In this document: positions 6,322 to 59,580 of the stretch, in pieces
How the letters are laid out: every line of letters begins with the position of its first letter
Position numbering within the stretch: position 1 is the first letter of the stretch
Source of the DNA: Candidatus Vogelbacteria bacterium
GTDB lineage: Bacteria > Patescibacteriota > Minisyncoccia > Phycocordibacterales > XYD1-FULL-46-19
Length of the DNA stretch: 64,000 nucleotides
Assembly: GCA_903864935.1 (NCBI GenBank)
Contig: CAIPHT010000005.1
Coordinates: 9,867-73,866 of the forward strand
Reading direction: 5' to 3'
Translations under genes and position numbers: made by a program
The notes under the pieces: generated by a model
Databases searched by the model: none
Told to the model about the DNA's origin: nothing
Seen by the model: the letters and a program-made list of their open reading frames with translations, nothing else

Positions 6322-6386
6322 GTTTTGAATTATACCATATGGTTCAGAAATTTGACGAGACTTTTATCCACATCTATCATTAACTC

Positions 6387-7259
6387 ATGTTAACGCAAAT
6401 CCAAAAAGAATTAAGAAAAGTGGCCGACAAAGACAAGGCAAAAATTTTGGCGCGGTTTTTCAAAACTGGGAAAGGCGAGTATGGTGAGGGTGATAAATTC
6501 TTAGGGGTGGTGGTGCCGGAGCAAAGACGGATTGCAAAAGAATATTTGCGAGACGAGAACGTTGTGAGAAGTCGTTTTTCAAGTGAGCCCGAAATGCGAC
6601 TTCGCACAATGTTCGCTGACCTTCAAAATCTTTTGCGAAGCGAGTATCACGAAGACAGGTTAACCGCCCTTTTGGTTTTAGTGGAGCTGTATCGACTTAC
6701 TCAAAAAAATGACCCTACTTCGCCGAGGCTTCGCAGGGTTAATTCGCGCAAGATTTTTTTGTTTTACATAAAAAATCTTGCGCGAACTTGCCCCGTGAGA
6801 GCGAAGCGATTTTACGGGGTTAACAATTGGGACTTAGTAGATTTAAGTGCCCCTAATATTGTCGGCGATTATCTGTTTACCCTGAGTGAAGTCGAAGGGT
6901 TGAATAATTTTTCTAAAATTCAAATAAAAACATTTTTGCTTAAATTAGCTAAGTCAAAAAATCTTTGGTCGCGTCGGGTGGCGGTGCTTGCCACCTTCCC
7001 CTTTATCAAAAATAAAAAGTTCGAAGAAATTTTAGAGTTGACCAAGTTCTTACTTTTCGAACAAAAAGAAAATCATGACCTAATGCACAAGGCTCTTGGT
7101 TGGGCGCTCCGCGAAGTGGGGAAGAGGGAGTTGGGAGTTTTGAGGAACTTCCTTGATCACTATGCGGGAGTCTTGCCTCGGACCACTCTTCGTTACTCAA
7201 TTGAGAGATTGCCTCAAAAGGAGAGGCTCGAGTATCTAGCTAGGCCCAAAATCGCTTGA
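6387..7259 (+). CDS. DNA alkylation repair protein (AlkD-like HEAT-repeat glycosylase family) carrying in-frame palindromic inserts
   Basis: N-terminus MLTQIQKELRKVADKDKAKILARFFKTGKGEYGEGDKFLGVVVPEQRRIAKEY and later ...NNWDLVD..., ...LWSRRVAVLA... are typical of the DNA_alkylation repair family. Extra segments VRSRFSSEPEMRLRT and DPTSPRLRRVNSRK.../...ARTCPVRAKRFYGV coincide with DNA palindromes. Confidence 0.7.
   Translation: MLTQIQKELRKVADKDKAKILARFFKTGKGEYGEGDKFLGVVVPEQRRIAKEYLRDENVVRSRFSSEPEMRLRTMFADLQNLLRSEYHEDRLTALLVLVELYRLTQKNDPTSPRLRRVNSRKIFLFYIKNLARTCPVRAKRFYGVNNWDLVDLSAPNIVGDYLFTLSEVEGLNNFSKIQIKTFLLKLAKSKNLWSRRVAVLATFPFIKNKKFEEILELTKFLLFEQKENHDLMHKALGWALREVGKRELGVLRNFLDHYAGVLPRTTLRYSIERLPQKERLEYLARPKIA
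6564..6607. repeat. 44-nt palindromic element GTGAGAAGTCGTTTTTCAAGTGAGCCCGAAATGCGACTTCGCAC inserted in-frame in the AlkD-like CDS
   Basis: Nucleotide-identical to 45454-45497 inside comEC. Imperfect hairpin (11-bp outer stem plus inner TTTC/GAAA). Encodes VRSRFSSEPEMRLRT in both hosts. Confidence 0.8.
6716..6820. repeat. composite nested palindrome inside the AlkD-like CDS (17-bp perfect stem TTCGCGCAAGATTTTTT/AAAAAATCTTGCGCGAA plus outer CTTCGC..GCGAAG arms)
   Basis: Read directly from the sequence. It stays in-frame (...NDPTSPRLRRVNSRKIFLFYIKNLARTCPVRAKRFYGV...). Confidence 0.6.
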
Positions 7260-20501: not shown

Positions 20502-20751
20502 AAGCGTGCTGCCGCTCGGTATTTTTACACGGTAATTTTAGACAACGAAAGAGAAATCAAGGTTTTTGCCTTAACTTTAAGGGGATTTGAGATGGTAATT
20601 GATTTCTGGGCCATGACCGGTTAGAGACCAAACGGACTTTAGGTTAATGTTTCTAATAAATTTACAACCAATTTGATTTAATATCGAATGACTTAATGAT
20701 ACCACACCCCTCGTCAGACCTCAAGTCCCAAACTTGCTCAGTAAAACAACA

Positions 20752-20797
20752 CAGAAAACCCCTCCAGCGAGGGGTTTTCTGTGTTGTTTAGGCTAAC
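20752..20797. terminator. intrinsic terminator AACAACACAGAAAACCCCTCCAGCGAGGGGTTTTCTGTGTTGTT (near-identical copy at 53963-54003)
   Basis: Long perfect stem GAAAACCCCTC/GAGGGGTTTTC, downstream of clpP on the minus strand. Confidence 0.65.
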
Positions 20798-20809
20798 AAG
20801 GTTGACGGC

Positions 20810-23617: not shown

Positions 23618-24718
23618 TTACTTTAATCCTTCAAGAAATTCAAAAACTTTTTCGTTTACAATTAGACCGGCGGCGTAGGAGCGAAGGCGGTCTTCGGGGA
23701 CATCTTTATATTGATTCTTGAGATAATCTACTTCGTTCTTTAATTCATCTTCAGGTGCAGTGATTCCTTCTAAGTGGGCGATCTCGTTTAAGATGAGACC
23801 GAAGGCGACACGCTCACGGGCTTGCTTCTCCCAGGAGTCGCGCAATTCCTCACGAGTTTTCTTAAGATGAGTGAGATAATCTTCGAAGTCCATACCCATA
23901 TAGCCAATTTGCCCTTCCATCTCGGCCAGCATCTTGTCTTTCTCGTTCTCGATGAAGACTTTCGCCATCTTGATCTCAGACTTGGCAATCACGCCCTCGA
24001 TAATCCCAACTCGTCTCTTGTCCTTGGCTTTATTAGCCTTCTCGAGAGCCAGATTTTCTTTAATTTTGGCTTTTAGCTCATCAAGAGTCTCAAATTGGCC
24101 GAGACTTTTGGCAAAATCATCATTAAGCTCGATTTCATGTCCCGCTTCCGCAGAATGCTCCGGCGAGGCGAGGTCACATTTCTCGCCCTCTTTGTGCTCG
24201 TGGTGGCTATGCTCGGCGCTCGAACGGCTTTTGCGTAATTCTTCGAGGACGTTGGTAATTTCTTCTTCTTTGACGGCCAAAGGCGAGTCCTCAAGTGAGC
24301 CCGAGGTCTCTCCTTGGGTCGTCACGGTGTTCTTGGCAATCGCTTTATAATCCCCAATTTTTACCTCCGGCATAATAGCGGTATTGATCTTGAAGCCGAG
24401 CGGGTTGCCGGGAGCGAGCTTGGTAATAGTAATCTCGGGGCGGCCAAGCGCCATAATTTTATTGTCGGTAATTATCTGCAAGTACATCTCGGAGATTGCC
24501 TGCTGAGCCATTTCCCAGAGAATTTTTTCTTCACCCAACTTCTCAACAAGAACGTTCTCGGGGATGTGGCCAGGGCGGAAGCCGTCTAACTTAGCATCTT
24601 GGCCCAGAGTTTTGAGGGCTTTCTCTCGATAGGGGGCAAATTCGGTGACGGCTAATTCGCCAGTGATTTCGAGTTCACCTTCTTCAGCCGGATTTATTTT
24701 AAGATCGGTAATTGTCAT
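23618..24718 (-). CDS. tig: trigger factor (short form, 366 aa)
   Basis: N-terminal ribosome-binding domain with the GFRPGHIP signature (cf. GFRKGKVP), followed by a PPIase-like and C-terminal helical region. Near clpP, as in the conserved tig-clpP neighbourhood. Confidence 0.7.
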   Translation of the reverse strand: MTITDLKINPAEEGELEITGELAVTEFAPYREKALKTLGQDAKLDGFRPGHIPENVLVEKLGEEKILWEMAQQAISEMYLQIITDNKIMALGRPEITITKLAPGNPLGFKINTAIMPEVKIGDYKAIAKNTVTTQGETSGSLEDSPLAVKEEEITNVLEELRKSRSSAEHSHHEHKEGEKCDLASPEHSAEAGHEIELNDDFAKSLGQFETLDELKAKIKENLALEKANKAKDKRRVGIIEGVIAKSEIKMAKVFIENEKDKMLAEMEGQIGYMGMDFEDYLTHLKKTREELRDSWEKQARERVAFGLILNEIAHLEGITAPEDELKNEVDYLKNQYKDVPEDRLRSYAAGLIVNEKVFEFLEGLK

Positions 24719-35132: not shown

Positions 35133-35175
35133 CATATATGGTAACATTTTTTACAATTGTAAAAAATGTTACCAA
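35133..35175. promoter_or_regulatory. 36-bp perfect palindrome TGGTAACATTTTTTACAATTGTAAAAAATGTTACCA (copy 1, downstream of the PaaX-like gene)
   Basis: Perfect dyad symmetry. A second copy at 35737-35774 differs by a single centre base. Confidence 0.6.
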
Positions 35176-35713: not shown

Positions 35714-35736
35714 TATTATTATCTATTTTAACAAAT

Positions 35737-35774
35737 GGTAACATTTTTTACAATCGTAAAAAATGTTACCAGAA
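35737..35774. promoter_or_regulatory. 36-bp palindrome copy 2 in the divergent intergenic region between the PaaX-like gene and tpiA (putative operator)
   Basis: GGTAACATTTTTTACAATCGTAAAAAATGTTACC, 60 nt upstream of the tpiA ATG. Confidence 0.55.
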
Positions 35775-39236: not shown

Positions 39237-39807
39237 TCTTTAAAATAATTTTTTTAGAATTACAAAGCCGCCAGAGGTCCTAAGACATGGCGGCAAACGG
39301 GGCCCCTCGAGGGGGCAAAAGCAGTGAGCAACGAAATCCAGACGCATGAACTTCGTTGCCTAATCTAAATAAAAATTGAAAGTTAGGGCACTTTCGTGGC
39401 GTCGTCCGTGGGCCTACTACTCCGAGCGATTCGGAGTGCAACTACGCGAGCTCTCGCAGTTGCTACGGCCTTTCTTTATTTATAGAACAGAGAAGATTGC
39501 TGGGGTGGTCTCATCGCTAACTCGCAATTGGGCGAGCGAGGGGTCAGCAAACTTCTTAGAGGAGCATCTAAGTTAAGTATATCATAACCACAAAATTTGT
39601 CAAGGATAAAAATAGAAACCGCCAGGTCTCGCAATGCGGTGGGACCCCAAGGGGGTGGTCGCGTTACGAAAAACTGGCGGCGGTAGCCGGTGGCATCCGG
39701 CCACGCGGGGAGCATTCAGATAGAGCTTGGGCCCCAATGCCCTTCTTTGTGGCATCCCTCTGCCCTTTAGTGTGTCATAACTTCAAAATTCGTCAAGTAT
39801 AAAAACA

Positions 39808-39843
39808 CCGCCCAGGTTTCGGACTCACTTGAGGCCTGGGCGG
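39808..39843. repeat. GC-rich hairpin of the CCGCCCAGG...CCTGGGCGG family (3' of the HIT gene)
   Basis: CCGCCCAGGTTTCGGACTCACTTGAGGCCTGGGCGG. Related copies at 48441-48476, 54947-54986 and 59543-59580. Confidence 0.6.
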
Positions 39844-39859
39844 GGAGAGGAGAAATGGC

Positions 39860-40276
39860 TTAAATTAAAGATTTTTTGATAGCTTCTTGAGTCTCGGCAA
39901 AATCTTCTTTGGTATAGCCACCTTGGCCATGCCAATGGATGAAACCGTCGCCGTCGAAGCGGGGGATGAGGTGTACATGGGAGTGGAAGACGAGTTGGCC
40001 GGCAGCCGGTTCGTTATTCCAACCAATATTTAAGCCATCGGCTTTGGTTCCGTCTTTGATTGCTCTGGCCAGTTTTTGTAAGACTGGGCCTAGTTTGATG
40101 AGAAGTTCTGCGGGTAGGTCGAAGAGGTTGCGGTGGTGTGCCTTAGGTAAGAGCAAGGTGTGGCCAAGATTAACAGGGTTGATATCGAGAACGGCCAGCC
40201 AGTCGTTATCCTCATAAACTTTGTCAGCCGGGATATCGCCGGCGATAATTTTGCAAAAAATACAGTCTGTTTCCAT
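39860..40276 (-). CDS. HIT-family (histidine triad) nucleotide hydrolase
   Basis: GHTLLLPKAHH...HSHVHLIPR: an HxHxHxx histidine triad with the N-terminal CIFCKII motif. Confidence 0.85.
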   Translation of the reverse strand: METDCIFCKIIAGDIPADKVYEDNDWLAVLDINPVNLGHTLLLPKAHHRNLFDLPAELLIKLGPVLQKLARAIKDGTKADGLNIGWNNEPAAGQLVFHSHVHLIPRFDGDGFIHWHGQGGYTKEDFAETQEAIKKSLI

Positions 40277-44631: not shown

Positions 44632-45084
44632 ATGAATACAGACAAAATATTTATGTACACCGATGGCGGTTCACGTGGCAATCCGGGTCCGGCCGGTGCA
44701 GGGGTCTATATTTGCAATGAGAAGAAGGATGCGGTGCGTACGGCCAAACTTTTTTTAGGCAAGGTGACCAATAACGAAGCTGAGTATCAAGCGGTAATTT
44801 TGGGCTTAGAGACTCTTAAAAAAGTCTTTGGCAAAGATAAGATCAAAGATTTGCCGGTCGAGATTCGTATGGATAGCGAGTTGATTTGCCGGCAGTTAAA
44901 AGGGGAGTATCAGATAAAAGATGATAATCTGGCCAAACTCTTTATGAAAATTTGGAATGCCCGCGTCGCCGACTTCCATAACCTGTCCTTTGTGCATATT
45001 CCCCGCGAAGAGAATCATGAGGCCGACAAGCTGGCCAACGAAGCCATGGACGAGGGAAGTAATTCTCAGTCGGGGTTGTTTTAA
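44632..45084 (+). CDS. rnhA: ribonuclease HI
   Basis: YTDGGSRGNPGPAG, NNEAEY, MDSELI and a C-terminal HEEAD-like motif; 150 aa. Confidence 0.88.
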   Translation: MNTDKIFMYTDGGSRGNPGPAGAGVYICNEKKDAVRTAKLFLGKVTNNEAEYQAVILGLETLKKVFGKDKIKDLPVEIRMDSELICRQLKGEYQIKDDNLAKLFMKIWNARVADFHNLSFVHIPREENHEADKLANEAMDEGSNSQSGLF

Positions 45085-45093
45085 AAAAGAAAA

Positions 45094-46641
45094 ATGAGCA
45101 TGGCTAATTTGAGAAAAAATTTAGCCCTGCTCATATTTGGTTTTTTGAGCGGTGTCACCTTGGGTGGTCTTATCTCTTGGGCTTTGCCGTGGGTGGGGCT
45201 ATTTTTGGTTCTCGCTCTGGCTTTCTCGGCCCTGTTTCTCAAACTTAAGCGCCAAAAGCTTTTTTTAGCTCTCGCCATAATTTTTGTTGGAGTGATTCTC
45301 GGCCTGATTAGATTTAACTTTAGCCAAAAAACTGACCAAGCTTTGCCCGATTGCTCATCTTCGTCTAGGCCTTGCCTAGCCATGGTTGTCGCTGACCCAG
45401 ACCGGCGAGATGCTTCAACGAGGTTGGTGATTGAGCTTATGGAGTCCGAGTTTGTGAGAAGTCGTTTTTCAAGTGAGCCCGAAATGCGACTTCGCACGAA
45501 CTCGAGAGTTCTAGCTATTATTGACAACTTCACCGACTACTCTTACGGCGACAAAGTGGAGCTCGTTGGTAAAGTAGAAAAGCCTCAGAACTTTTTGACT
45601 GAACAAAACACCGTCTTCGATTATCAAAATTATTTATTAGTCCGCGGCATAGAACAAACAGTTTATCAGCCCAAACTTAAAATCATTTCTCGGGGTAACG
45701 GTTCTACTGTTAAGGCTGGTCTCTATTCTTTAAAAAATAATTTCTTAGGCAATCTTCGTCGTACTTTGCCCGAGCCGGCTGCCTCGTTAGCTGGCGGTCT
45801 CATCTTGGGGGACAAGGGCGGCTTAGGTAAGAAGACTGAAGATGAGTTTAGGCAAGCCGGGGTCTCGCACATTATTGTCCTCTCTGGCTATAACATTACG
45901 ATTGTGGCCGAGAGTGTGCTCTATTTCTTCGCTTGGCTCACACCGGCTTTCTCCTGGCTCCTTTCTATTGGTTCAATCTTTCTTTTTGTCCTGATGACCG
46001 GTGGCGAAGCTGCGGCCGTGCGCTCGGCGGTGATGGGCGCCATCGCGCTCATAGCAAGGCGTTATGGTCGCACCTATGATGCGGGAGTGGCCTTAATTGT
46101 TGCCGGCTTCTTGATGATAGTTTGGAATCCAAGGCTTCTCGCCTTCGACCTCGGCTTTCAACTCTCCTTCCTCGCCACATTGGGTTTGATATATTTGTCA
46201 CCCGTGGTGGAGAAGCTTTTGGATATCGGTTCGGGATTTCTGCGAAGTCGCATCTGGCTACGCGAGAAACGACTTCTCAAAAATCCCGAGCTTTTGAGAA
46301 GTTGGACTTCAAGAGAGCCCGAAGTCCAACTTCGCGGAAGCGGGGAGAAAAAGTTTAACAAGGATGTTTGGTCCGGTCTCAAAGAGCTCATCTGCACCAC
46401 CACCGGCGCCCAACTCGCCGTCTACCCTTGGCTCCTCTATAAAATGGGCAACGCTTCGCTCGTTGGTTTCATCTCCAACATCTTCATTCTCCCACCTATT
46501 CCCATTGCCATGTTCTTAAGTTTCTTAACGGGTATTACTGGTTTTATTTCCTCCTTCCTATCTCTTCTCATCAGTTATCCTACTTATTTCCTCCTCGCTT
46601 ATATCCTCAAAATGGCTCATATCTTTGCGAGTTTGTTATAA
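45094..46641 (+). CDS. comEC: ComEC/Rec2 competence protein, membrane channel part (DUF4131 + Competence domain), with in-frame palindromic inserts
   Basis: Multi-TM with IIVLSGYNITIVAES (competence domain signature). Contains the 44-nt palindrome at 45454-45497 and a related one at 46297-46335. Confidence 0.8.
   Translation: MSMANLRKNLALLIFGFLSGVTLGGLISWALPWVGLFLVLALAFSALFLKLKRQKLFLALAIIFVGVILGLIRFNFSQKTDQALPDCSSSSRPCLAMVVADPDRRDASTRLVIELMESEFVRSRFSSEPEMRLRTNSRVLAIIDNFTDYSYGDKVELVGKVEKPQNFLTEQNTVFDYQNYLLVRGIEQTVYQPKLKIISRGNGSTVKAGLYSLKNNFLGNLRRTLPEPAASLAGGLILGDKGGLGKKTEDEFRQAGVSHIIVLSGYNITIVAESVLYFFAWLTPAFSWLLSIGSIFLFVLMTGGEAAAVRSAVMGAIALIARRYGRTYDAGVALIVAGFLMIVWNPRLLAFDLGFQLSFLATLGLIYLSPVVEKLLDIGSGFLRSRIWLREKRLLKNPELLRSWTSREPEVQLRGSGEKKFNKDVWSGLKELICTTTGAQLAVYPWLLYKMGNASLVGFISNIFILPPIPIAMFLSFLTGITGFISSFLSLLISYPTYFLLAYILKMAHIFASLL
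45454..45497. repeat. 44-nt palindromic element, identical to 6564-6607, in-frame inside comEC
   Basis: Exact 44/44 nt identity. Encodes VRSRFSSEPEMRLRT in the same frame as in the AlkD-like gene. Flanks form extra complementary arms (CGAGTT / AACTCG). Confidence 0.8.
46297..46335. repeat. diverged member of the same palindromic element family inside comEC (GAGAAGTTGGACTTCAAGAGAGCCCGAAGTCCAACTTCGC)
   Basis: Shares the GAGAAGT...TTCAAG.GAGCCCGAA...ACTTCGC framework, with a compensatory inner stem TGGACTTC/GAAGTCCA. Confidence 0.6.
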
Positions 46642-48425: not shown

Positions 48426-48440
48426 AAATTCACCTAAAAA

Positions 48441-48476
48441 CCCGCCAGGCCTCGGGCTCACTTGAGGCCTGGCGGG
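48441..48476. repeat. GC-rich hairpin of the CCGCCAGG...CCTGGCGG family (terminator for the S2P gene)
   Basis: CCCGCCAGGCCTCGGGCTCACTTGAGGCCTGGCGGG. Confidence 0.6.
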
Positions 48477-48499
48477 GGAGAAAGGGGGAGTTTTTGCCC

Positions 48500-48528
48500 T
48501 TGACAGAAATAACCTGTTATGCTATACT
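48500..48528 (+). promoter_or_regulatory. extended -10 sigma70 promoter TTGACA-N17(..TGC)-TATACT
   Basis: TTGACA 48500-48505, TATACT 48523-48528 preceded by TGC. An RBS AAGGAG and the ATG at 48601 follow. Confidence 0.6.
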
Positions 48529-49942: not shown

Positions 49943-50031
49943 ATTAATAAAGTAACCTAATTTCTAATTGGTCTAATTGACCTAAATTACAAGCCTTAGA
50001 AATTAGAATAATTAGAAATTAGAATAATTTT

Positions 50032-54946: not shown

Positions 54947-54986
54947 CCCCGCCCAGGTCTCGGGCGACCTTGAGGCCTGGGCGGGG
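54947..54986. repeat. GC-rich hairpin CCCCGCCCAGGTCTCGGGCGACCTTGAGGCCTGGGCGGGG between divergent promoters
   Basis: Same family as 39808, 48441 and 59543. Confidence 0.6.
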
Positions 54987-56750: not shown

Positions 56751-57591
56751 TATGAAAAAATACGCCCCAACAACTCCATCCCGTCGCAACATGACCACGA
56801 TCAACTATCGTGAGTATTTGACCGTTTCTGAGCCACATAAGCCTCTCACCAAAGGGGTGAAGCGAGATGTTGGCCGTAATGGTGATGGTCGCATCACTGT
56901 CCGTCACAAGGGGGGTGGACACAAGCGCCTCTATCGCGACATTGATTTTAAATATACTAAGGTTGGTATCCCGGCCAAGATTGAGACTGTGGAGTATGAT
57001 CCTAATCGCTCTGGCTTCATTGCCCTTGTCTGTTACAAGGATGGGGCTCGTGCTTATCACTTGCTTCCTAAGGAGCTCAAGGTTGGTGATGTTATCTTGA
57101 ATGATGCTAGCGCTGATGTGAAGACCGGCAACCGTTTACCACTTTCTAAAATTCCTGTTGGTACCTTTATTTACAATATCGAGACCAAGCCGGGGAGTGG
57201 AGCTAAGTTTGTCCGTTCGGCTGGTTCTTATGCTGAGGTTGTCTCTCATGATGCTGGCTATACCGCCATCAAGATGCCTTCAACTGAAGTTCATAAATTA
57301 CTTGATACCTGTTCCGCTTCGATTGGGGCCGTTTCTAATGATGAACACAAATTAGTTAAGTATGGTAAGGCCGGCCGTTCTCGCTGGAAGGGTATTCGCC
57401 CAACTGTCCGAGGCACCGCTATGAACCCAGTAGATCATCCATACGGAGGAGGTGAAGGTGTCCAAGGCCGAGGTACTCGTCGTCCTAAGACCATGTGGGG
57501 TAAGGTTACCGGTGGTAAGAAGACTCGTCACCCTAAGAAATACTCTAACCACCTCGTTGTTTCTCGCCGTAAGGTTGGGAAAAGAAAGTAA
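56743..57591 (+). CDS. rplB: 50S ribosomal protein uL2
   Basis: Canonical L2 (..GGGHKRLYR.., ..RGTAMNPVDHPYGGGEG..). Confidence 0.93.
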   Translation: MSNMKKYAPTTPSRRNMTTINYREYLTVSEPHKPLTKGVKRDVGRNGDGRITVRHKGGGHKRLYRDIDFKYTKVGIPAKIETVEYDPNRSGFIALVCYKDGARAYHLLPKELKVGDVILNDASADVKTGNRLPLSKIPVGTFIYNIETKPGSGAKFVRSAGSYAEVVSHDAGYTAIKMPSTEVHKLLDTCSASIGAVSNDEHKLVKYGKAGRSRWKGIRPTVRGTAMNPVDHPYGGGEGVQGRGTRRPKTMWGKVTGGKKTRHPKKYSNHLVVSRRKVGKRK

Positions 57592-57602
57592 AAACTCAGA
57601 AC

Positions 57603-57645
57603 TGCCCTTGGCCTTCGGTCAAGGGCAGTTTTACTTTTCCCCCTT
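57603..57645 (+). terminator. intrinsic terminator CTGCCCTTGGCCTTCGGTCAAGGGCAG + TTTT immediately after rplB (inside the S10 operon)
   Basis: Perfect 9-bp stem plus a T-run. Confidence 0.6.
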
Positions 57646-57750
57646 TTTTTCTTTTCCCTCATGTCCCTCAATGCTATTATTAACCTAGGCCTAAAGTGCC
57701 TAACGTGTTTTTATTATAAATTTATTAGTAACCAATTTTTTATTAAACAA

Positions 57751-59511: not shown

Positions 59512-59542
59512 AGTATTGAGATTGTCCTGAAATTAAGAAAAC

Positions 59543-59580
59543 CGCCCAGACCTCTAGTTTCCCGAGGTCTGGGCGGTTTT
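59543..59580 (+). terminator. intrinsic terminator of the CCGCCCAG hairpin family (CCGCCCAGACCTC...GAGGTCTGGGCGG + TTTT)
   Basis: 13-bp stem plus a T-tract after the surface-protein gene. Confidence 0.65.

Follow-up and report, generated by a model that had tools for sequence, protein, structure and literature searches.

The closest described precedents for the repeat reported here are the Rickettsia palindromic elements (RPEs), which occur in frame in genes of Rickettsia, and intragenic copies of repetitive extragenic palindromes (REPs) in other bacteria, often in repair genes, as presented in PMC10969869 and PMC3733652. In the accounts of RPEs given there (Ogata et al. 2000, 2002, via PMC10969869, PMC3733652), dispersed palindromes of a reduced genome lie in frame in unrelated housekeeping genes, their host proteins are apparently functional, the encoded peptide falls in surface loops and no linked transposase is known. 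We found the same combination of traits in a short hairpin repeat of a 64,000-nt stretch of DNA from Candidatus Vogelbacteria bacterium (GenBank assembly GCA_903864935.1, contig CAIPHT010000005.1, positions 9,867 to 73,866; hereafter the window), where it is inserted, among other places, in the comEC and AlkD genes. RPE-1 classically measures ~100–150 bp, as opposed to the 44 nt of the element studied here, and RPEs belong to Alphaproteobacteria whereas our element belongs to Patescibacteria, or candidate phyla radiation (CPR). The latter is also distinguished by a conserved loop and by site-specific inverted-repeat flanks. Given the differences in size and phylum, homology to RPE-1 to RPE-10 appears unlikely.

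Other families of palindromic repeats show partial similarities. REP and REPIN sequences are also short imperfect palindromes with many copies, found as singles and head-to-head doublets, some of them terminator-like at gene ends (PMC3733652). A REP is an imperfect palindrome of 20–40 nt with a GTAG or CGTC tag at one end (PMC3733652), whereas the core of our element is slightly longer (44 nt), has neither tag and is intragenic in ~77% of the cases rather than extragenic; moreover, a gene resembling the REP-associated tyrosine transposases (RAYTs) was seen only in one relative (L003), where it is flanked by a different hairpin, and none was found in the window. Without the tag, mostly intragenic and with no cognate RAYT shown, the element is not a REP in the strict sense. 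SPRITEs and other terminator-like repeats (named in PMC10969869) are repeated hairpins at gene ends, as are four GC-rich hairpins of the window (listed below). These GC-rich hairpins, however, share their apex with the genic copies of the element. To our knowledge, an apex common to terminator-like and genic copies has not been described for SPRITEs. [quoted passage not shown] Mitochondrial hairpin elements and GC clusters (PMC2800124) are short mobile hairpins of compact genomes, sometimes genic and without flanking duplications; their stems are constant and their loops vary, whereas the opposite holds here, with a constant loop and a variable stem. Finally, PARCELs are palindromic coding repeats that, like our element, can be read in both orientations, but they are intragenic tandem repeats building surface proteins instead of single short inserts in housekeeping enzymes (PMC2996958). 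The element is a new repeat family of an already known kind, in a phylum for which we found no description of such repeats in the literature searched (Patescibacteria, CPR and Parcubacteria).

Copies of the hairpin in the window

The repeat unit is a hairpin of ~44 nt, or ~51–60 nt including its flanks. The 44-mer GTGAGAAGTCGTTTTTCAAGTGAGCCCGAAATGCGACTTCGCAC is present without any mismatch at 6564-6607(+) in AlkD and at 45454-45497(+) in comEC, with 0 occurrences expected from 100 shuffles. The stem pattern GAGAAGTYG-N14-30-CRACTTCKC has four matches in the window, again with 0 expected: the two 44-mers, 46296-46335(+) and 46242-46278(-). An earlier note on this DNA had reported the identical palindrome in the two genes, a diverged second copy in comEC with compensatory stem changes and, upstream of it, a degenerate relative, and all of them proved to be real. 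The second copy is one of the four pattern matches and has its full core at 46294-46337; its mid-stem is GTTGGAC/GTCCAAC where the 44-mer has GTCGTTT/ATGCGAC. The supposed degenerate relative (CTGCGAAGTCGCATCTGGCTACGCGAGAAACGACTTCTCA, 46240-46279) is a true family member in reverse orientation, with the stem of the 44-mer and a different, shorter loop. The more general idea of a dispersed palindromic repeat in coding sequence, whose diverged copies are kept paired, is supported by the pattern matches and by the folding and covariation analyses presented below. To this we can add the paired site-specific flanks, the conservation of the loop rather than the stem, and the terminator-like and trigger factor relatives, which the earlier note did not contain. 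In total, the window holds nine hairpins of the family: four of A/B type or with an alternative loop, one diverged member in the trigger factor gene and four GC-rich ones at gene ends. These copies and the open reading frames (ORFs) of comEC and AlkD are as follows:

6387-7259: AlkD ORF, 290 aa, uninterrupted, which holds copy c1
6557-6614 (+): copy c1, in AlkD; core 6564-6607 identical to that of c2, with different but paired flanks GAACGTT/AATGTTC; reads VRSRFSSEPEMRLRT
24276-24319 (+): diverged member, located in frame in the gene of trigger factor (23618-24718, -); loop motif without mismatch, stem different; reads TQGETSGSLEDSPLA
39804-39847 (-): GC-rich hairpin, loop with one mismatch, then a T-run; 13 nt 3' of the ORF 39860-40276(-); terminator-like
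45094-46641 (+): comEC/Rec2 ORF, 515 aa, uninterrupted, with three in-frame hairpin repeats at two loop sites; homologs with PF03772 and PF13567
45447-45504 (+): copy c2, comEC site 1; type A core 45454-45497; flanks CGAGTTT/GAACTCG; reads (EF)VRSRFSSEPEMRLRT(NS)
46233-46287 (-): copy c3, comEC site 2; core 46240-46280, type-A stem with the shorter alternative loop CTCGCGTAGCCAG; flanks GGGATTT/AAATCCC; reads LRSRIWLREKRLLK
46287-46344 (+): copy c4, comEC site 2; core 46294-46337, mid-stem GTTGGAC/GTCCAAC, loop AAGAGAGCCC; flanks CGAGCTT/AAGCGGG; reads LRSWTSREPEVQLRG
48437-48480 (-): GC-rich hairpin CCCGCCAGGCC-TCAAGTGAGCCCGA-GGCCTGGCGGG; no mismatch in the loop motif; flanked by the M50 peptidase gene and, at 48500-48528, a strong promoter-like site
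54947-54986 (-): GC-rich intergenic hairpin with the stem family of the GC-rich set; loop motif with three mismatches
59538-59580 (no strand assigned): GC-rich terminator-like hairpin CCGCCCAGACCTC...GAGGTCTGGGCGG, then a T-run; degenerate loop TAGTTTCCC, stem family of the GC-rich set

Copies c3 and c4 form a head-to-head doublet in comEC. The apex of the hairpin, TCAAGTGAGCCCGA, is nearly invariant and consists of a 10-nt loop (AAGTGAGCCC) closed by a T-A and a C-G pair (TC/GA). The base, GTGAGAA/TTCGCAC, is conserved as well and retains an A:G mismatch, and seven mid-stem pairs vary freely while staying paired. The two main versions, types A and B, correspond to an exact exchange of the 13-nt arms (GTGA-X-loop-Y-GCAC versus GTGA-Y-loop-X-GCAC), and a third version keeps the stem unchanged with the shorter loop of c3. 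Concerning the GC-rich hairpins, those at 39804-39847(-) and 59538-59580 have, as judged by eye, the T-run and the position of an intrinsic terminator, and that at 48437-48480 does not on the gene's strand. The terminator consensus scanner takes only loops of 3–8 nt, which places the hairpins of this family outside its range.

Pairing, reading frame and turnover at fixed sites

Pairing continues ~7 nt beyond the 44-mer on each side, up to the outer coordinates listed above for c1 to c4. These outer flanks (4–7 nt) are unlike at every site yet complementary, to the point that the identical cores of c1 and c2 have different paired flanks. Among 30 core-type copies, six flank positions were paired in 79% of the cases versus 53% when left and right partners were shuffled, and none of 2000 shuffles reached a value as high. 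Folding as RNA gave energies of -29.7, -38.7 and -61.8 kcal/mol (the last one for the doublet, 46225-46350), with z-scores from -3.5 to -6.6 and no shuffled sequence equalling them. We then measured covariation along a 23-pair hairpin in a gap-free alignment of 39 sequences, using shuffled and slid-partner controls. Standard pairs occupied 84.9% of the cells, versus 62.9% after shuffling and 36–45% with slid partners, and double-sided changes amounted to 212 versus 72 in shuffled alignments; for both measures, 0 of 500 shuffles reached the observed value. The covariation score was 0.586 (0.193 shuffled). Changes on both sides affected 21 of the 23 pairs, the only invariant ones being the two that close the loop.

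The census set comprised ~330 kb, namely the window plus contigs of related Paceibacterota, and contained 39 distinct hairpins with the loop motif. Thirty of them (~77%) lie within ORFs of 254–1001 aa, encoding ComEC, AlkD, trigger factor, NifS, UvrC, LeuRS, Dus and PrmC, all of which are intact; the other nine are intergenic. Stops interrupt frames 2 and 3 of the forward copies, frames 1 and 2 are open in the reverse ones, and all 26 genic copies of A/B type use frame 1. The forward peptide is V-R-S-R-F-S-S-E-P-E-M-R-L-R-T and the reverse one V-R-S-R-I-S-G-S-L-E-K-R-L-L-T, and an insert adds 15–17 hydrophilic residues to its host protein (VRSRFSSEPEMR is an example of an element-derived peptide within ComEC or AlkD). 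Neither boundary of the 30 core-type copies shows a GTAG or CGTC tag, their ends being GTGAGAA... and ...TTCGCAC.

The element is restricted to a narrow clade. Judging by homologs of its ComEC, the organism of the window belongs to Candidatus Paceibacterota (Parcubacteria, CPR), close to Vogelbacteria. A degenerate 40-nt pattern searched in one genome each of 185,579 species yielded 22 matches only, all in ~7 related metagenome-assembled genomes (MAGs) of Paceibacterota, and viral contigs gave no match to the element pattern. A metagenome scan with the ComEC protein provided no new empty or filled alleles, only two loci already in our comparison set. Concatenated element peptides used as a search query retrieved nothing and the 36-aa doublet peptide retrieved, from 1.84 billion representatives, one unrelated repeat protein, protein searches being unable to census a 15-residue insert. 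One genome of the set, GCA_964639285.1 (CAZXCI01; L009/L027), is titled 'uncultured Candidatus Saccharibacteria', yet its ComEC is 73% identical to that of the window, its gene order matches and it has the same repeats; on this comparison, its label is probably wrong.

Identical cores recur in unrelated genes, in genomes with ComEC identities of only 70–82%. The exact type-A 44-mer was present at five unrelated sites in four genomes, in AlkD and ComEC of the window, Dus of SO_2016_GW1_29, UvrC of AMR_MDS_3160 and PrmC of LW4_71; near-exact type-A copies occur in LeuRS, at a second UvrC site and at ComEC site 2 of L001, and the exact type-B core was found at three sites. Since the ComEC proteins of L001, L026 and L027, which carry such cores, are only 73–82% identical to that of the window, neutral vertical descent cannot explain the identity of 44 out of 44 nucleotides. 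The cores are either strongly constrained or continually re-copied, and the mosaic that they form at fixed sites, as read from the sequences, favours re-copying.

This mosaic was most visible in ComEC, where the alignment of 22 relatives placed the inserts at two variable loops. Depending on the relative, these loops carry forward (VRNATSSEPEVVFRT), reverse (VRKTTSGSLEVAFLT) or alternative-loop (VRSRIWLREKRLLT) modules, doublets, or nothing; P0006 and P0007 are devoid of both inserts, P0006 being the closest such ComEC. Site 1 of comEC is occupied by type A in the window, by type B in L001 and L026 and by a reversed type B in L003 and L005, and the same kind of mosaic was observed in NifS, AlkD, UvrC, LeuRS, Dus and PrmC. 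The 37-nt core of c3 recurs unchanged in uvrC of L015 and in comEC of three relatives (L003, L005 and L027). Wherever it occurs (comEC in five genomes, uvrC in one more), the alternative-loop copy has a partner of opposite orientation 8–16 nt away. We also observed at site 1 of L027 (comEC of CAZXCI010000002.1, 10370-10410) a different GC-rich palindrome, CCTGCCCGCAATGCTTTGCAACGCAAGGCAGG, nested in the loop of a reversed element with an apparent CGG duplication. The resulting peptide is TSACPQCFATQGRRGS, and this composite peptide recurs in the AlkD homolog P0128.

The outer flanks co-vary between orthologs too. At comEC they are GAGCTT/AAGCTC, GAGTTT/GAACTC or GAGCCT/AGGCTC, and in NifS the left flank changes synonymously (ATT GGT to ATC GGC) and the right flank changes accordingly, with Thr-Lys replaced by Pro-Arg, so that base pairing is kept at the cost of protein sequence. 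Compared with empty homologs, the net gain is ~17 residues (51 nt = 44 + 7) at comEC site 1 and NifS site 1, a gain that would fit the core together with one flank duplicated in inverse orientation; the available empty alleles, including those of NifS and PrmC, are too diverged for proof. In six syntenic 20-kb loci compared protein by protein, elements occur in comEC only. The rpsG-fusA spacer contains a copy, with base GTGTTCGAAG, in L001, L026 and L027 and none in L003, L005 and the window, the sequences being too diverged for boundaries to be defined; the spacer of the window (49950-50013) has an AT-rich imperfect hairpin with 29-nt arms. L008 and L011 were rejected as a pair of orthologous loci because they concern different genes (LeuRS and NifS), the similarity between them being limited to the element and 7 nt of a single flank.

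The 290 aa of AlkD exceed the ~235–250 aa of shorter homologs without inserts, and the protein has three inserts, one at the element site and two others. In its AlphaFold model (mean predicted local distance difference test, pLDDT, of 77.5), three of the four segments with values below 50 fall in the inserts (residues 60-62, 109-111 and 134-143), between helices. The element insert is located in a stretch of reduced confidence (the block of residues 61-70 averages a pLDDT of 55) that links two helices and was modelled in part as the extension of a helix. For both ComEC and AlkD, relatives without inserts align gap-free elsewhere. The element inserts are thus predicted by the model to lie in surface loops, compatible with the host fold. 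The two additional in-frame inserts of AlkD (6711-6746 and 6783-6818) belong to a whole hairpin of ~6709-6820. One of them, DPTSPRLRRVNS, contains a direct repeat of CTTCGC, and the other, RTCPVRAKRFYG, holds GTGAGAGCGAAG between CCCCGT and ACGGGG; relatives carry either of them alone. The native codons for KIF...KNL are mutually reverse-complementary and form with the inserts one hairpin with 29-nt arms (-60 kcal/mol over 6678-6839).

Possible spread of the element and alternative explanations

We consider, with a probability of roughly 0.7, that the element is a selfish mobile non-coding palindromic repeat family, of the REP or Rickettsia palindromic element type, belonging to a narrow clade of Candidatus Paceibacterota. 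A DNA-level process acting on the hairpin itself would spread copies to new places or overwrite older copies. We infer this mobility and its mechanism from the conserved apex, the A:G mismatch, the flanks that are site-specific yet complementary, the way cores and orientations turn over at fixed sites, the restriction to one frame and the nesting in loops. Two mechanisms would be the most likely: a trans-acting enzyme would recognise the hairpin in its single-stranded form, or hairpins would interact at replication forks through short-patch template switching or gene conversion; either of them would also explain the complementary flanks. Copies would survive in genes only when the added length is a multiple of three, the frame is stop-free and the 15–17 extra residues fall in a tolerant surface loop, and they would persist there because one frame per orientation is free of stops and codes for a short hydrophilic peptide acceptable to surface loops. 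The GC-rich intergenic relatives occupy places where terminators are expected.

Several observations weigh against this interpretation. The window revealed no transposase or other mobilising gene, and tblastn did not detect any Y1 gene in it. The sole mobilising candidate is the Y1_Tnp/RAYT-like gene of L003 (220 aa, L003:17516-18178, between fusA and tuf), which reaches 43 bits on the NCBIfam model NF047646, below its cut-off of 80, and is flanked on both sides by GGGGGAGGTTGAGCCTCCCCC, a hairpin unrelated to the element and absent from the window; this gene could be the REPtron of a second repeat family in the clade. The loop is more conserved than the stem, as expected of a functional structure recognised by a protein. 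Reverse copies use frame 1 solely (12:0) despite their open frame 2, which is not predicted by random insertion followed by a stop-codon filter. Finally, the 30 copies exhibit no direct target-site duplication (no consistent direct repeat at any boundary offset, with at most 5 of 30 copies sharing a 3-mer), no high-identity pair of empty and filled alleles was found, and insertion was never observed directly.

CPR genomes are among the smallest and most gene-dense, and still this hairpin repeat is inserted in genes for DNA uptake, repair, translation and protein folding. It extends the 'protein-coding palindrome' phenomenon of Rickettsia to another reduced-genome lineage and accounts for part of the length variation of CPR proteins. 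It also has practical effects, including false antisense ORFs with shared peptides, contig breaks or mis-joins, and spurious 'homology' of unrelated proteins. Leads to a mobilisation mechanism, which is not understood for any intragenic palindrome family, come from the conservation of the loop and from the complementarity of the site-specific flanks.

It might even be, although we find it doubtful, that the element moves by a mechanism undescribed for bacterial repeats, combining recognition of the apex, homing into (or overwriting of) hairpin centres and inverted duplication of the flanks. This would explain the layering of a constant loop, a subfamily-specific stem and a site-specific outer stem, as well as the turnover of cores and orientations, the single frame used in both orientations and the nested loop insertions. 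Such a process could act on single strands at replication forks or on DNA entering via ComEC and, if true, housekeeping proteins of CPR bacteria would be a substrate for continuous loop remodelling.

An unlikely alternative is that the repeat is a DNA signal beneficial to the host, with the 10–14 nt apex as the predicted recognition site for uptake via the type IV pilus and ComEC or for a nucleoid or replication protein. Such a signal would work in both orientations, whether the DNA is double-stranded or extruded, and its occurrence in hairpins and in genes would be secondary. The uptake sequences of Neisseria and Haemophilus are also found in terminators and are enriched in genome-maintenance genes. 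In agreement with this possibility, the loop is the most conserved part of the element and is common to hairpins with unrelated stems, including the terminator-like ones; the motif is orientation-independent and has, with up to two mismatches, six matches in 64 kb versus 0.46 expected, and the hosts of the element include AlkD, UvrC and ComEC. However, its density of ~1 per 7–10 kb is roughly ten-fold under that of known uptake sequences, the motif is essentially confined to hairpin apices, which a site in duplex DNA would not need, the alternative-loop subfamily drops the motif while its stem is kept and equally conserved, and nothing ties the motif to any protein.

Still less likely is a cis-acting mRNA structure selected for a regulatory role, for instance in processing (by RNase III or otherwise), in translational pausing, or as an attenuator or terminator within genes. 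The hairpins are certainly very stable (-30 to -39 kcal/mol each), their covariation is strong, their loop is conserved as in protein-bound RNA hairpins and their intergenic relatives are terminator-like. Nevertheless, the 30 genic copies are divided into 16 sense and 14 antisense, so that the RNA loop would be AAGUGAGCCC in half of them and GGGCUCACUU in the other half, and the orientation flips between orthologs at the same site. A role at the mRNA level is unlikely because of this random orientation, and it is also argued against by the balance of mispairs on the sense strand, where G:U shows no excess over A:C (28 versus 26). The host genes are functionally unrelated, and Rfam recovered from the window three tRNAs only at gathering scores and nothing meaningful at E<=10 across 45400-46400.

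Slightly below this in probability, we place the possibility that the palindromes are mutational by-products grown in place by intra-strand template switching (quasi-palindrome correction), with no mobile unit. Their site-specific yet complementary flanks, more paired than in any of the shuffled sets, would fit this explanation, as would the orthologous flanks that co-vary even when residues change (the Thr-Lys to Pro-Arg case of NifS) and the ~110-nt hairpin of AlkD built around the native KIF and KNL codons. However, it cannot explain the identical 44-mers and 37-mers or the same loop at many unrelated sites and genomes. Template switching may well be a secondary process that extends and repairs the hairpins.

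It is highly improbable that selection acts on the 15-residue peptide as a protein-level module (for instance, a charged surface tag), its palindromy being incidental. In favour of this, the peptide is in frame in all cases and is found repeatedly in many proteins. Against it, the peptide differs between forward and reverse copies, some copies are intergenic, residues change freely with the stem while base pairing is kept, and the inserts are low-confidence loops in the structural model.

Three known types of elements were also tried and dropped: a CRISPR array, as the copies are dispersed and not arrayed; an integron attC site, as the stem has a base of another type than R''/R'; and an intron or intein, as the reading frame remains open and we saw no signals for splicing.

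Assembly, antisense reading frames and further repeats

The least probable explanation of all is a sequencing or assembly artefact (a repeat-induced chimera or an adapter hairpin), which the earlier note had named as a possible refutation and which is very unlikely given that the ComEC and AlkD proteins are identical on 3–4 independent contigs of up to 86.8 kb in NCBI and ENA, that related in-frame elements occupy the same protein loops in independent JGI, ENA and NCBI assemblies of relatives, and that reading frames are preserved everywhere. SMRTbell or other adapter artefacts were discarded as well, the copies being in frame, orthologous and present in many assemblies. On the other side, two short contigs from another sample, L028 (1-2056) and L029 (1-1826), are 99.9% identical to 44794-46282 and then switch exactly at the end of c3; past this junction they contain another copy of the hairpin followed by an RNase HII fragment, and their comEC is cut to 427 aa. 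This break implies that the repeats, although no artefacts themselves, mediate rearrangements or cause local mis-joins, and the junction itself may be either a repeat-mediated rearrangement or a chimeric mis-join.

The integrity of comEC, on which the earlier note had suggested a check in relatives, is supported by its uninterrupted 515-aa ORF and by the orthologous copies of relatives, which are also in frame. The note had further claimed that two antisense ORFs were created purely by the repeats, forming a trap for gene callers. The spurious ORFs do exist, and the trap with them, but the claim of their origin applies to the first one, which starts on a GTG of the repeat, and not to the second, which starts upstream and only runs through it:

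6380-6607 (-): spurious antisense ORF, 75 aa; the repeat supplies its GTG start and initial 15 codons (MRSRISGSLEKRLLT)
45081-45533 (-): spurious antisense ORF, 150 aa; runs through c2 (VRSRISGSLEKRLLT), the repeat being stop-free in this antisense frame

Other short inserts were observed in the relatives. They are of the PNASARQSK, GAGQAAQGK and STSSGQA types and occur in columns 209-231 of the ComEC alignment and in the LeuRS, RNase R-like and Dus ORFs of L008, L017 and L013. Their presence suggests that additional families of hairpin repeats write into the proteins of this clade.

Some palindromes of the window are of a different nature. The longest inverted repeats (20729-20804 and 57579-57651) have arms of 36 and 35 nt that are 81% and 71% complementary, respectively, and a sequence unrelated to the element family. 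In addition, a perfect AT-rich palindrome, TGGTAACATTTTTTAC...GTAAAAAATGTTACCA, is present in two copies ~600 nt apart (35139-35174 and 35736-35771) and has an operator-like appearance.

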